This document shows, one piece after another, positions 57,755 to 64,000 of a DNA stretch of 64,000 nucleotides. The DNA lies in the NCBI RefSeq assembly GCF_029227855.1, contig NZ_CP074356.1, one strand, 5' to 3'. The notes beneath the pieces were generated by a model, which was given only the letters and a program-made list of their open reading frames with translations, ran no database searches and was not told the origin of the DNA. This DNA comes from Escherichia coli. GTDB lineage: Bacteria; Pseudomonadota; Gammaproteobacteria; Enterobacterales; Enterobacteriaceae. Within the stretch, counting starts at the first letter, position 1; the number at the start of each line of letters is the position of its first letter. Both the position numbers and the translations under genes were made by a program.

Positions 57755-58795
57755 ATGAAATCAGTGGTGAATGATACTGATGGTATCGTGCGCGTTGCAG
57801 AAAGCGTCATTCCTGAAATTAAACATCAGGATGAGGTGCGGGTAAAAATTGCCAGCTCGGGATTATGTGGTTCCGATTTACCCAGGATATTTAAAAATGG
57901 TGCACATTATTATCCAATAACGTTAGGCCATGAATTTAGCGGCTATATTGATGCGGTGGGATCCGGTGTTGATGATTTACACCCTGGCGATGCGGTTGCC
58001 TGTGTGCCGTTATTACCCTGTTTTACTTGTCCAGAGTGTCTAAAAGGGTTTTATTCCCAGTGCGCAAAATATGATTTTATTGGCTCGCGGCGTGATGGTG
58101 GATTTGCTGAATATATTGTCGTTAAGCGAAAAAATGTCTTTGCTCTACCCACGGATATGTCTATTGAGGATGGGGCTTTTATTGAGCCGATTACCGTTGG
58201 CCTGCATGCTTTTCATTTAGCGCAAGGTTGTGAGAATAAAAACGTTATTATTATTGGTGCCGGAACCATTGGCCTGCTGGCAATTCAGTGCGCTGTCGCG
58301 CTGGGAGCAAAGAGTGTGACGGCTATCGACATTAGCTCAGAAAAACTGGCACTGGCAAAATCTTTCGGTGCGATGCAAACATTTAACAGCCTTGAAATGA
58401 GCGCGCCGCAAATGCAGGGCGTTTTACGCGAGCTGCGCTTTAATCAGCTTATCCTCGAGACGGCTGGTGTCCCGCAAACCGTCGAACTGGCGGTAGAGAT
58501 TGCCGGGCCTCATGCCCAGCTGGCGCTGGTGGGCACGTTGCATCAGGATCTGCATTTAACATCGACAACGTTTGGCAAAATATTACGTAAAGAGCTGACG
58601 GTTATCGGCAGCTGGATGAACTACTCCAGCCCTTGGCCGGGGCAGGAGTGGGAAACGGCGAGCCGGTTGCTGACAGAACGTAAGTTAAGCCTGGAGCCAT
58701 TAATCGCTCACCGTGGAAGCTTTGAAAGCTTCACCCAGGCGGTGCGTGACATCGCTCGTAATGCTATGCCGGGCAAAGTGTTGCTCATTCCCTGA
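57755..58795 (+). CDS. gatD: Galactitol-1-phosphate 5-dehydrogenase (Zn-dependent MDR family)
   Basis: 346 aa; GHEFSG zinc motif and GAGTIGL NAD-binding motif. Confidence 0.9.
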   Translation: MKSVVNDTDGIVRVAESVIPEIKHQDEVRVKIASSGLCGSDLPRIFKNGAHYYPITLGHEFSGYIDAVGSGVDDLHPGDAVACVPLLPCFTCPECLKGFYSQCAKYDFIGSRRDGGFAEYIVVKRKNVFALPTDMSIEDGAFIEPITVGLHAFHLAQGCENKNVIIIGAGTIGLLAIQCAVALGAKSVTAIDISSEKLALAKSFGAMQTFNSLEMSAPQMQGVLRELRFNQLILETAGVPQTVELAVEIAGPHAQLALVGTLHQDLHLTSTTFGKILRKELTVIGSWMNYSSPWPGQEWETASRLLTERKLSLEPLIAHRGSFESFTQAVRDIARNAMPGKVLLIP

Positions 58796-58894: not shown

Positions 58895-59674
58895 ATGACG
58901 ATGAATTCATTCGAGCGAAGGAATAAGATCATCCAATTAGTGAATGAACAGGGAACCGTGCTTGTTCAGGATCTGGCGGGAGTATTTGCTGCCTCGGAAG
59001 CGACAATCCGTGCCGATTTGCGCTTTCTCGAACAAAAAGGCGTGGTTACGCGCTTTCATGGCGGTGCGGCGAAAATAATGTCCGGTAATAGTGAAACCGA
59101 GACCCAGGAAGTCGGGTTTAAAGAGCGATTTCAGCTCGCCAGCGCGCCAAAAAACAGAATAGCGCAGGCGGCAGTCAAAATGATCCACGAAGGGATGACC
59201 GTTATTCTCGACAGCGGAAGTACGACAATGCTTATCGCCGAAGGATTAATGACCGCCAAAAATATCACGGTGATTACCAACAGTCTCCCGGCAGCATTTG
59301 CCCTTTCCGAAAATAAAGACATTACTCTGGTCGTCTGTGGTGGGACCGTCCGCCATAAAACACGCTCGATGCATGGTTCCATTGCCGAGCGTTCATTGCA
59401 GGATATTAATGCCGATTTAATGTTTGTCGGTGCTGATGGTATTGATGCGGTTAATGGTATTACGACCTTTAATGAAGGTTATTCGATTAGCGGGGCGATG
59501 GTTACAGCCGCAAATAAAGTGATTGCCGTTCTCGATTCATCGAAATTTAATCGTCGCGGTTTTAATCAGGTACTGCCAATCGAAAAAATTGACATTATTA
59601 TTACCGATGATGCCGTGTCAGAGGTGGATAAACTGGCATTGCAGAAGACACGGGTGAAATTAATTACGGTGTAG
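58895..59674 (+). CDS. gatR: DeoR-family repressor of the gat operon, apparently intact
   Basis: 259-aa uninterrupted ORF with N-terminal HTH and DeoR C-terminal sugar-binding domain. Confidence 0.85.
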   Translation: MTMNSFERRNKIIQLVNEQGTVLVQDLAGVFAASEATIRADLRFLEQKGVVTRFHGGAAKIMSGNSETETQEVGFKERFQLASAPKNRIAQAAVKMIHEGMTVILDSGSTTMLIAEGLMTAKNITVITNSLPAAFALSENKDITLVVCGGTVRHKTRSMHGSIAERSLQDINADLMFVGADGIDAVNGITTFNEGYSISGAMVTAANKVIAVLDSSKFNRRGFNQVLPIEKIDIIITDDAVSEVDKLALQKTRVKLITV

Positions 59675-59696
59675 TATTGCTCTGTATGCCGGATAA

Positions 59697-59728
59697 AGTT
59701 TTTACACCGCATCCGGCATTACGGATTC
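59697..59728. repeat. REP element between gatR and yegS
   Basis: tgccggataaagtttttacaccgcatccggca. Confidence 0.65.
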
Positions 59729-59755
59729 TCCCTGGTTCAAGAGAGAATAGTGTGA

Positions 59756-60655
59756 TTAACGCAACAATGGGCAATCTGGTGGTAATCGACAACGCAACGC
59801 CGCCGGAAGTATTTCAATATGAAAGTTTTGTCCGCTCAACGGTTCGCCATCAAGATTAAAAGTGATTTCGTGTGGGGCTTGTATATCAAACCACGACGAA
59901 GCGCCTTCGATAATATTCGGGTTATCTTCGTCAGATTTTAATGTTGATACGAGAGCCGGAAGAATTTCATCGCCGGTAAAAATGCGCAGTTGCAGCAAGC
60001 CATCGTTAATTAACGCGTTCGGGCACAATTGCTGACCGCCACCGGCCTGACGCCCGTTACCAATACCAATGACCAGGGCGTCACCTTGCCAGTGAAAGTT
60101 TTCACCGCGGATCTCACAACGGTCCGGTTGCAGAGTATCCATGCGCATTAAGCCATGAATGATGTAAGAGACGCCACCCAGCGCGGCTTTTAATTTTTCC
60201 GGCGTTTCTGTGGTAATACGCGTCCCAAATCCGCCTGTCGCCATATTAATAAAACAGGTTTGTTTGTTGACCTGCGCCATATCTATCGCAATGGCGTCAC
60301 CGGCAATTGCCAGTTTCAGCGCCTTATCCAGTGCCTCAGGAATCCTTACACTGGTGGCAAAATCATTGGCGGTTCCTAATGGCAAAATTCCTAGCGCGGG
60401 TATGTCATCCCCCTCACACTGAATCAACGCCGTAGAAACTTCATTAATGGTGCCATCGCCACCACCGGCAATCACCGTTGCGACGCCCAACTTCCGGGCC
60501 TCCTCTACATATCGTGCGGCATCGCCTTTCTCCCAGGTGACCCGCACATGGATCGTCATTCCTTCCTCACGCAACAGCATAATTGCTTCGCGCAATGGTA
60601 AATTGTCAGTACTTTTGCCATTAAGAATCAGTAAGCTGGCGGGAAATTCTGCCAT
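59756..60655 (-). CDS. yegS: Lipid kinase YegS (DAGK_cat family)
   Basis: 299 aa; GGDGT motif ([11 protein letters not shown]). Confidence 0.9.
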
Positions 60656-61069
60656 GATCGTATGTGCCTTTATGATTGGTCTGTAGATAGTGTATAGCAG
60701 AAAAGAAAAGGTGGAGTCAGAACAGGATGAAAGTCGGAGGATAAAAAATCAGTTCAAGTATGGAGGATTCAGTGGTTACCACCAGGAGCTTGCAATGGGG
60801 ACAGTGAATGTTAACGGTAGCCACCGGTAAATTTCAAAAAAGAGCATATACCTAATATTCAACTAAACAGTGGCATCTTCAATATACTATTAAAAATATA
60901 TTAACCCCCCCATGGGGTTACCCGGAAGGGCCTCCGTGTATGTAATTCCTACTTATGTAGGAAATGTTGTACAGAACATTTATTATAATCCTATTCAATT
61001 ATAATAATCATGCCATTATTATATTTAAACACCAGAGCGTGTCGTTGGTATTTAATGGGGGAAGGTGAG

Positions 61070-61387
61070 ATGAAAAAGATAGCTGCTATATCATTAATTA
61101 GTATTTTTCTTATGTCTGGTTGTGCTGTGCATAATGATGAAACAAGTATCGGTAAATTTGGTCTTGCATATAAAAGTAATATTCAGCGTAAACTCGATAA
61201 CCAATACTACACCGAAGCCGAAGCTTCTTTAGCCAGGGGCAGAATTTCTGGTGCAGAAAATATAGTAAAAAATGATGCAGCTCATTTCTGTGTTACTCAG
61301 GGCAAAAAAATGCAGATAGTTGACCTGAAGACAGAAGGTGCAGGATTACATGGCGTCGCTCGTCTGACATTCAAATGTGGAGAGTGA
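61070..61387 (+). CDS. yegR: Small lipoprotein YegR
   Basis: ORF 61010-61387; start MKKIAAISLISIFLMSGCAVH (lipobox) gives 105 aa. Confidence 0.8.
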   Translation: MKKIAAISLISIFLMSGCAVHNDETSIGKFGLAYKSNIQRKLDNQYYTEAEASLARGRISGAENIVKNDAAHFCVTQGKKMQIVDLKTEGAGLHGVARLTFKCGE

Positions 61388-61556
61388 GAATATTTTTTGG
61401 TAAGCGTCAAACATGCGCGTTCTGATTGTGCGTAGCCGGAACCTGTACGAGCACGATGCCGTTAAGTGAAAGGCATCGTGCTATGAAGGGGGATTCTATC
61501 GATGTGGTCAATGGAAGACGGTCACCTGGGATCAATCCGTCTCTATGGTTTATGCA

Positions 61557-61644
61557 CAAAAAATAAGCCCGTGTAAGGGAGATTACACAGGCTAAGGAGG
61601 TGGTTCCTGGTACAGCTAGCATTTTATGGGTTATGTTTTTCAGC
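61557..61644 (-). ncRNA. cyaR: CyaR (RyeE) Hfq-dependent sRNA
   Basis: Reverse complement reads GCTGAAAAACATAACCCATAAAATGCTAGCTGTACCAGGAACCACCTCCTTAGCCTGTGTAATCTCCCTTACACGGGCTTATTTTTT, which I recognise as CyaR including terminator hairpin and U-tail; directly downstream of yegQ. Confidence 0.85.
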
Positions 61645-61678
61645 GAAACAGATGATAACCTTAATAAATGCAGCTGTA

Positions 61679-61694
61679 TGTGATCGGTTTCTAA
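61679..61694 (-). promoter_or_regulatory. Probable CRP site (tgtga-tcggtt-tctaa) centred about 42 bp upstream of the cyaR 5' end
   Basis: One consensus half-site and one degenerate half-site at class II spacing; cyaR is known to be CRP-activated. Confidence 0.5.
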
Positions 61695-61728
61695 GAATTT
61701 TCCATCCGGGAAAAATAATCGAAATTAA

Positions 61729-63090
61729 TCACTTACCGTGGGGGTTACGCGTGGTTTCCCCGGAGAAATTACGCATCAGCAGCGCGTAATTTAGCTCAAG
61801 ATCCTGCGGCACCGGGATCCACACAGTATAACCATCGCCCGGTGCGACCGGCATTGCTTCGCCTTTGGCGTTTTCCATGTGCTCAAGGGTAAAGTTAATG
61901 TTCCCTTGCGGCGTCATCAGCTCAAGGCTGTCGCCAACGGAGAATTTATTTTTCACCGCTACCGCCGCGAGGTCGCCCTTGCGCTCACTGGTAAACTCAC
62001 CAACAAACTGCTGGCGGTCAGAAACTGAATAACCGTATTCGTAGTTCTGATAATCGTCGTGAGTATGACGACGCAGGAAACCTTCGGTATAGCCACGATG
62101 CGCCAGACCTTCCAGGGTTTCCAGCAGGCTGGTATCGAATGGTTTTCCCGCAGCTGCGTCATCGATAGCTTTACGGTAAACCTGCGCGGTGCGTGCGCAA
62201 TAGTAGAAAGATTTGGTACGGCCTTCGATTTTCAGCGAATGCACGCCCATTTTGGTCAGGCGTTCAACATGGGCGATGGCGCGCAGATCTTTCGAGTTCA
62301 TGATGTAAGTGCCGTGCTCATCTTCAAACGCGGTCATATACTCGCCCGGACGCTGGGCTTCTTCGATCATAAACACTTTGTCGGTTGGTGCGCCGATCCC
62401 CAGCGTCGGTTCAACGTTTTGCACCGGAATCGGTTCGTACTTGTGTACGATGTTGCCGACGTCATCTTCTTTCCCTTCCTGGACGTTATACTCCCAGCGG
62501 CAGGCGTTGGTGCAGGTGCCCTGGTTCGGGTCGCGCTTGTTGATATAGCCAGAGAGCAGGCAGCGACCGGAGTAGGCCATGCACAGCGCGCCGTGAACGA
62601 AGATTTCGATCTCCATATCTGGCACCTGATTGCGGATCTCTTCAATCTCTTCCAGTGACAGTTCGCGAGAGAGGATCACGCGGGTCAGACCCATTTGCTG
62701 CCAGAATTTCACCGTCGCCCAGTTCACGGCGTTAGCCTGTACTGAGAGATGGATCGGCATTTCAGGGAAGTGCTCGCGCACCAGCATAATCAGCCCTGGA
62801 TCAGACATAATCAGCGCATCCGGCCCCATTTCCACCACCGGTTTCAGGTCACGGATAAAGGTTTTCAGCTTGGCGTTGTGCGGTGCAATGTTGACCACGA
62901 CATAAAACTTTTTCCCCAGCGCGTGGGCTTCATTGATGCCGAGCTGAAGATTTTCGTGGTTGAATTCGTTGTTGCGCACACGCAGGGAGTAACGCGGCTG
63001 GCCCGCATAAACAGCATCTGCGCCATAAGCGAAAGCGTAACGCATATTTTTCAGCGTTCCCGCCGGGGAAAGGAGTTCCGGTTTAAACAT
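61729..63090 (-). CDS. yegQ: Peptidase U32-family protein
   Basis: 453 aa; conserved Cys-rich U32 core. Confidence 0.9.
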   Translation of the reverse strand: MFKPELLSPAGTLKNMRYAFAYGADAVYAGQPRYSLRVRNNEFNHENLQLGINEAHALGKKFYVVVNIAPHNAKLKTFIRDLKPVVEMGPDALIMSDPGLIMLVREHFPEMPIHLSVQANAVNWATVKFWQQMGLTRVILSRELSLEEIEEIRNQVPDMEIEIFVHGALCMAYSGRCLLSGYINKRDPNQGTCTNACRWEYNVQEGKEDDVGNIVHKYEPIPVQNVEPTLGIGAPTDKVFMIEEAQRPGEYMTAFEDEHGTYIMNSKDLRAIAHVERLTKMGVHSLKIEGRTKSFYYCARTAQVYRKAIDDAAAGKPFDTSLLETLEGLAHRGYTEGFLRRHTHDDYQNYEYGYSVSDRQQFVGEFTSERKGDLAAVAVKNKFSVGDSLELMTPQGNINFTLEHMENAKGEAMPVAPGDGYTVWIPVPQDLELNYALLMRNFSGETTRNPHGK

Positions 63091-63291
63091 AATTCTCTCG
63101 TTCTGATGACAGGTCAGATCCGCTTCACCTGATGAAGCGGCCAGGGGAGTGCCCCCACTTTAAGGGCGGGCATTGTAGCGCAATCGTCGGGGTTGGCTCC
63201 AGTGTAATTGTGATGAGCTTTTCGATGCCTGGCGTACAATTGACATCAGAATTGAGTATATTTACGACCGTGAATGTTAAGGAGTTAAAAC

Positions 63292-63897
63292 ATGTGGATG
63301 TTAAAGAAGGGATTCACTCTGGCTCTGTTGGTTCTGTTTTCTCTGCCCGCTACTGCCGGTCTTTCGCTGGAGGAGACTGCTCGCAAGGTGATTATCGGCT
63401 TTCAGCAAGAAGATGCTCAATTAATCAACTCATTAATTGATAAAAAAACGGGGTTGTATGTTCTTTTCCACCGTGGCGCTTCGATGGATGTCGAAAATTT
63501 TAAGTCAATTGATTTTAAAACGCCTGTTCCCGAGTATTTGCTGTGGCCTTCGGCAGGGGAGCATATTCCGCGAGATGAAGAGTTTGATAAGAAAACTATC
63601 CCGGAATTTGACTGTGAACGTGGCTGGAATAAGCACGGATATTTTATTAGCAGCAGCGATACACACCATAAAGTCAGCCGTAATTTGGTCTTCACGCAGA
63701 TGTTTGGTTCACCGCGAAACACTATTTCTGATGCGCAGATTGCCGCAGCGCGTCGAATGGAGTACGGGGCCGTGCGTGTGGTCGCTGCGCCAGAAAAGGG
63801 TAGCGACGGACTGGTATTTTATTTAAGTCAACTTTACGGTTATGACACTGACTGGTATCTGACGGTGGTGGATCAGATTGGTGATTGTGGGGCGTGA
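63292..63897 (+). CDS. Hypothetical secreted protein (201 aa), not assigned
   Basis: AAGGAG 7 nt upstream of ATG; N-terminal signal peptide MWMLKKGFTLALLVLFSLPATA; divergent from yegQ; I could not match it to a known K-12 neighbour. Confidence 0.6.
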   Translation: MWMLKKGFTLALLVLFSLPATAGLSLEETARKVIIGFQQEDAQLINSLIDKKTGLYVLFHRGASMDVENFKSIDFKTPVPEYLLWPSAGEHIPRDEEFDKKTIPEFDCERGWNKHGYFISSSDTHHKVSRNLVFTQMFGSPRNTISDAQIAAARRMEYGAVRVVAAPEKGSDGLVFYLSQLYGYDTDWYLTVVDQIGDCGA

Positions 63898-64000
63898 TAA
63901 AGATTTATCCGCCCGCAAGCAGTGATGTTATTTGAAGGGAATGTAACCCCATAATCTGTTGTGAAGTTCCGGATTGCGGGTAAAAAGCGCCTGAAGTTGC

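Follow-up and report, generated by a model that had tools for sequence, protein, structure and literature searches.

Several integrating elements use the 3′ ends of tRNA, tmRNA and sRNA genes as attachment sites, such as P4 at leuX and various elements at ssrA. At these sites, crossover occurs in the 3′ terminal hairpin of a gene for a small stable RNA, and the integrating element restores the 3′ end of that gene. The same holds for the P2 site at cyaR, except that the target is an Hfq-dependent regulatory sRNA and not, as for P4 at leuX, a tRNA. We take this preferred, cyaR-side site to be the locI of the P2 literature on Escherichia coli C. It was reportedly characterised by Yu, Bertani and Haggard-Ljungquist in 1989 and by Barreiro and Haggard-Ljungquist in 1992, together with a 27-bp core that locI and the phage attP have in common. 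Occupation of the corresponding K-12 site by a phage remnant is also said to have been described in 1992. In E. coli K-12 MG1655, the annotated order is trhP, cyaR, 'cryptic prophage PR-X' (629 bp, containing ogrK and a yegZ pseudogene) and yegR. PR-X is derived from P2, consisting of ogr, the 3′ end of D, the P arm and a truncated second core. A preliminary description of the DNA analysed here had placed such a P2-like remnant between cyaR and yegR in K-12, and the MG1655 annotation bears this out.

Here, we describe the same site in a stretch of 64,000 nucleotides from another E. coli strain (contig NZ_CP074356.1; hereafter the window). We conclude, with a probability of about 0.9, that the interval at 61388-61557 is the flank of an unoccupied P2 attachment site (locI), whose core lies in the CyaR terminator. 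The core sequence, AATCTCCCTTACACGGGCTTATTTTTT, has a single exact match in the window, at 61558-61584 on the minus strand, and is the sequence annotated as the attP feature of P2 (AF063097, 24356-24382). It makes up the loop-proximal 3′ half of the CyaR terminator stem and the U-tract. The cyaR gene itself occupies 61558-61646 on the minus strand. Its covariance match to RF00112 (61561-61646) scores 100.7 bits, compared with a gathering score of 47, and is full length (model positions 1-85). The terminator spans 61593-61566 followed by a T-run, and its U-tract extends to 61558, which is also the cyaR 3′ end according to the K-12 annotation. Upstream of cyaR lies its conserved neighbour yegQ/trhP, a 453-aa open reading frame on the minus strand (61729-63090) to which matching E. 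coli records give the name trhP/yegQ. In some E. coli the core differs by one base, reading GCCTGTG in place of GCCCGTG (for example, our locus L005, around 1020-1046). This variant converts a U-G wobble in the CyaR terminator to a U-A pair and still matches the P2 core at 26 of 27 positions.

On the other side of the core, yegR occupies 61070-61387 on the plus strand and encodes a predicted lipoprotein of 105 aa. The gap between its stop codon and the core is 170 bp and contains no phage gene. The preliminary description had put this gap at about 170 bp, as measured here, and although the gap is real, the span it gave (61388-61556) ended one base short, the last base being 61557. Its further statements, that no Ogr-like open reading frame is present and that the 3′ end of cyaR acts as the attachment site, agree with our results. 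Indeed, tblastn searches with P2 Ogr, K-12 OgrK, P2 Int and gpD gave no coding match anywhere in the 64 kb (best E = 0.15). In an occupied site, a P2-type integrase would have recombined the bacterial core with its identical counterpart in attP of the phage. The prophage would then separate the core from the 170-bp interval, ogr adjoining cyaR and int adjoining the interval. Because the phage brings an identical copy of the core, cyaR would remain intact in such a lysogen.

Comparison with K-12 places the two strains at the same chromosomal site, with the same flanking sequences, in different states. The distance from the cyaR 3′ end to the yegR stop codon is 788 bp in K-12 and 170 bp in the window. 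Pairwise BLAST and MAFFT alignments carry the window across both K-12 flanks without the intervening PR-X, all 629 bp of which are missing, and BLAST, MAFFT and tblastn each show that the ogrK gene and the yegZ (D′) fragment found beside cyaR in K-12 are absent from the window. The segment spanning gatR, yegS, yegR, cyaR and yegQ (59198-63181) is about 4% diverged from K-12, and the adjacent gatD segment is 99.65% identical. Only three records are at least 99% identical to the window over 61000-61800, a span in which strain E300010 does not differ from it at all. By sequence comparison, 59198-63181 is a locally divergent haplotype around the attachment site. Within it, gatR (58895-59674) is intact and encodes 259 aa, and in K-12 the gene is split by IS3E; gatD precedes it at 57755-58795, and yegS follows at 59756-60655 on the minus strand. 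Beyond yegQ, the match to K-12 ends, and positions 63182-64000 contain neither yegP nor baeR. A 201-aa open reading frame in this part (63292-63897) belongs to no Pfam family. Among 5426 complete E. coli genomes, only 6 have the 0.9 kb concerned, annotated there as encoding a hypothetical protein and a HEAT-repeat protein, and it looks like a rare insertion running past the end of the window.

The same set of 5426 complete E. coli genomes shows how the site is used across the species. The sequence from yegR to yegQ is held in one place in 4562 of them, and the site is interrupted by more than about 0.9 kb, or rearranged, in about 860 (some 16%). The K-12-type deletion joint was found in 359. 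The empty state is thus the common state in E. coli. In other strains, the match to the window breaks precisely at the edge of the core (query position 585). For example, int, C, cox and replication genes adjoin the core on the yegR side in strain STO_Bone2 and in record ON470606, and tail genes, D and ogr abut cyaR in strain elppa10. Integration at the core predicts this orientation, in which int faces yegR and ogr faces cyaR. ON470606 was also considered as a phage attP sharing about 190 bp with the interval, and was rejected as such, being a prophage record that includes host flank (yegR, yegS and gatR). With no remnant in the window and the prophages of other strains joined at the core, the preliminary description was right to regard the site as unoccupied. 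Further, of the two findings that it had named as refuting it, neither was obtained: the K-12 interval is not of the same length, and tblastn gave no ogr-like open reading frame. The search for copies of the attachment core returned the one exact core and, as next best, a 19/27 match at 60743-60769.

An unoccupied P2 site at cyaR is already known biology, and the ordinary state in E. coli. Compared with the P2 attB locI of E. coli C, the window has the same exact 27-bp core in the same place, at the cyaR 3′ end between yegQ and yegR, and both are without a prophage. Nothing essential differs, the window being a minority flank haplotype with 12 extra bp. These 12 bp (61533-61544, AGAGACGGATTG on the minus strand) are missing from most E. 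coli, and 8 of the 12 match the IHF region of P2. The long form is represented by about 223 records that are at least 95% identical over 61470-61600, and the short form by 5179 records in the 80-90% band, which puts the haplotype of the window at about 4% of complete genomes. A second difference lies just after the yegR stop codon, where 948 E. coli genomes carry 169 extra bp of AT-rich sequence (our locus L005, 694-862). This segment is absent from both the window and K-12, and its deletion point in the window is 61392/61393. We infer that the strain could be lysogenised by P2 at 61558-61584. Unlike K-12, it would offer a free preferred integration site, useful for lysogenisation or P2-based engineering. 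The full-text literature searched, which did not include the primary papers of 1992 and 2004, yielded no link between the P2 site and yegR, yegQ or cyaR.

The site in the window may be secondarily empty, an earlier P2-like prophage or K-12-type remnant having been lost through Int/Cox excision or recombination between flanking repeats. A precise excision would regenerate attB without a trace, and about 16% of complete genomes have an interrupted site. The divergence of yegS-yegQ from K-12, set against the near identity of gatD, suggests recombination around the site and would fit such a loss. We consider this history unlikely, however, as precise excision is not available to the K-12 remnant, with int missing and the right-hand core truncated, and most genomes are in the empty state to begin with. 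Such a loss does not conflict with our main explanation of the present sequence.

Compared with K-12 and with P2 lysogens, the site is indeed unoccupied, and yet it does not appear to be virgin DNA. We collected 120 cyaR loci from species-representative genomes by the pattern of conserved CyaR positions, counting the matches listed only; this sample is without E. fergusonii, Salmonella and the named cryptic Escherichia species. In 63 of the 120 loci listed, which come from Enterobacterales as diverse as Providencia, Yersinia, Enterobacter and Citrobacter, yegS lies 79-527 bp beyond cyaR in the same orientation, and in 8 more it is more distant. YegR is encoded in none of the 120 outgroup loci listed. 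The closest uninterrupted relative among the matches listed is E69, a genome labelled E. coli in a one-genome-per-species collection, whose YegS and GatR proteins are 94% and 98% identical to those of the window. The alignment of E69 with the window runs through the final base of the core (99.3%), breaks off there and resumes at the yegS leader, and therefore delimits an E. coli-specific block of 788 bp, at 60770-61557. On the far side of this block, the outgroup comparison and the E69 alignment together define an ancestral yegS leader (60656-60742), which with yegS spans 59756-60742 on the minus strand.

The block is absent from E69 and from the 63 outgroup loci listed, and its boundaries are the end of the core and a degenerate second core. 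The latter, AATCCTCCATACTTGAACTGATTTTTT (60743-60769, minus strand), matches the core at 19 of 27 positions and sits at the far edge of the block, its position coinciding with the boundary defined by E69. Apart from the core itself, no sequence on either strand of the window matches the core better; with the T-run left out, the agreement is 13 of 21 positions (empirical p = 3.9e-4). K-12 and three other E. coli retain the second core in drifted form (16-19 of 27 positions). The block is AT-rich, with a GC content of 0.32-0.42 compared with about 0.50-0.55 in the flanks, and the part 5′ of yegR (60770-61069) has a GC content of 0.32-0.38. A terminator-like hairpin, TAACCCCATGGGGGGGTTA, followed by a T-run, lies in this AT-rich part at 60902-60920 on the minus strand, oriented towards yegS. 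Neither tblastn nor DNA searches against phages found phage genes inside 60743-61557, and the interior of the block has no independent match among phage genomes.

Sequence resembling P2 attP lies at the ends of the block, clearly so on the P side and only over a short stretch on the P′ side. On the P side, the relic at 61485-61557 (minus strand) resembles the flank of P2 attP, and the alignment of the interval with attP continues past the core, through the annotated IHF site and the P-arm site of Int, to enter the ogr terminator. Outside the core, the local alignment has a score of 21, compared with 8.1 +/- 1.3 for shuffled sequences, none of 2000 of which reaches 21. A 15-mer, CATTGACCACATCGA (61499-61513), is identical in P2, the window and all E. 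coli flanks examined. Within it, the Int arm-type repeat TGACCACA is intact at 61503-61510. The same motif recurs twice, as GTGTCCACA, in the annotated P′ arm of P2, and it is therefore a phage-functional element. The bacterial copy has only degenerate versions of the second P-arm repeat and the IHF consensus. On the P′ side, about 40 bp next to the second core (60770-60809) were compared with the 40 nt left of the P2 core, giving a positional score of 9 against -6.6 +/- 3.3 for shuffled sequences, 1 of 5000 of which reaches it. The match is short, and as a free local alignment it has only modest significance, being equalled by 27 of 2000 shuffles. Where P2 has the ogr terminator, the interval has a hairpin (61450-61482, plus strand) with an 11-bp stem, AGCACGATGCC and GGCATCGTGCT, around an 11-nt loop. 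It lacks a U-tract. As an intrinsic terminator this hairpin was rejected, since a terminator scan made no call and the folding z-score is about -2 on either strand.

In our view, an older P2-type insertion at the same core probably brought yegR with it, and the 170 bp are probably its left end in a decayed state. The resemblance to P2 might also run in the other direction, the interval being ancestral host intergenic DNA and the P arm of P2 a copy of host sequence downstream of cyaR, with no fossil involved. Host-derived 3′ ends are indeed found in phages whose integration targets are tRNA or sRNA genes, and the 27-bp core is itself CyaR sequence that is conserved across genera. Yet none of the uninterrupted outgroup cyaR loci among those listed, E69 included, has P-arm-like sequence, and the empty-site flanks of eight other species score 6-9 against the P2 P arm, which is the level of shuffled sequence. 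These uninterrupted loci lack the whole block, and the bacterial 15-mer holds an integrase arm-type repeat that is functional in the phage and recurs in its P′ arm. Moreover, the second core is preceded by P′-like sequence, which copying of one host flank cannot give. A host origin is thus very unlikely. The idea that the interval encodes a small protein is less probable still: a 71-aa frame (61407-61622, minus strand) and a 46-aa frame (61426-61566, plus strand) both exist mechanically, but the former crosses the cyaR terminator, neither resembles Ogr by tblastn or follows a promoter-like site, and the 12-bp and 169-bp indels among strains fall in this region.

If an older P2-type insertion did occupy the site, then yegR is its apparent cargo. 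YegR has no family in a Pfam scan, and precomputed protein-database domains give only the YegR family PF27694, which is almost confined to E. coli and Shigella. Homologues with 77-83% identity lie in unrelated context and are followed by the gene for a 110-aa lipoprotein, and a 52% homologue in an Enterobacter lies among IS3, IS110 and Tn3 elements. DNA homology between the loci of these homologues and the window is limited to yegR alone. More broadly, YegR-family genes with 48-83% identity were seen in unrelated chromosomal contexts. One set has the conserved 110-aa lipoprotein partner and lies between glutaminase and nitroreductase genes, and another adjoins a MerR regulator. The 169-bp segment found after yegR in other E. 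coli was considered as a repeat or mobile element, and rejected as either, being a single-copy gene fragment. It codes for the N-terminus of the partner lipoprotein, whose gene lies after yegR homologues elsewhere (tblastn E = 6.5e-7). This fragment of a partner gene implies that the ancestral block held yegR and at least the start of its neighbour, in which case the window haplotype would since have lost the piece at 61392/61393. Retention of the 12 bp and loss of the 169 bp are what piecemeal decay would produce.

A parallel at the same gene is found in the type strain of E. albertii, NBRC 107761 (our locus L011, 4957-8400), where a P2-type relic with two ends, located at the cyaR attachment site, encloses cdtA, cdtB and cdtC. 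The order is core, truncated P arm, IS fragment, cdtA, cdtB, cdtC, 96 bp, second core, ancestral leader and yegS. The Cdt proteins match the Pfam families CDtoxinA and Exo_endo_phos. The 96 bp are 84% identical to the Cox-site region and core of P2, and the second core matches at 23 of 27 positions. Both this relic and the E. coli block lie between cyaR and yegS, are flanked by cores and have kept their cargo, and both are devoid of phage structural or integration genes. They differ in age and content. The E. albertii relic is younger and clearer, as judged by its second core and Cox-site region, and its cargo is a toxin operon; decay has gone much further in the E. coli block, which carries yegR. 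Further, P2 arms, ogr, D or int follow cyaR at loci in Citrobacter, Buttiauxella and Enterobacter, showing that the site is used across genera. In Enterobacter sp. Bisph1, a variant P arm follows cyaR with an Int fragment only 1.6 kb away, and this locus is possibly a small relic. In SCPM-O-B-8794, a genome labelled E. coli, cyaR is followed by an IHF-like region and then by different arm repeats, which suggests a P2 relative that may have a different integrase arm specificity.

We envisage that an older P2-type integration would have placed about 0.8 kb with yegR, the size to which the block has since decayed, between cyaR and yegS, where it is now presumably fixed in E. coli. The insertion would originally also have carried the start of the neighbouring lipoprotein gene, and would have left the degenerate second core beside the yegS leader. 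The left core would still be used by later P2 phages because selection on CyaR preserves it. The weak points of this older-insertion reading are that the second core matches at only 19 of 27 positions, that the P′-side match is short and that there is no phage gene within the block.

If the reading is correct, each later P2 integration lands beside a leftover P arm with one intact integrase arm-type site. This leftover arm could affect the efficiency or direction of P2 recombination relative to secondary sites, although we give such a functional effect only a slight chance. It also raises a testable question, namely whether a leftover integrase-binding arm beside attB contributes to the site preference of P2. 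An older insertion would also provide an origin for yegR, an orphan gene of E. coli. In this scenario, elements in several genera would have landed again and again, over long times, at the same sRNA terminator.
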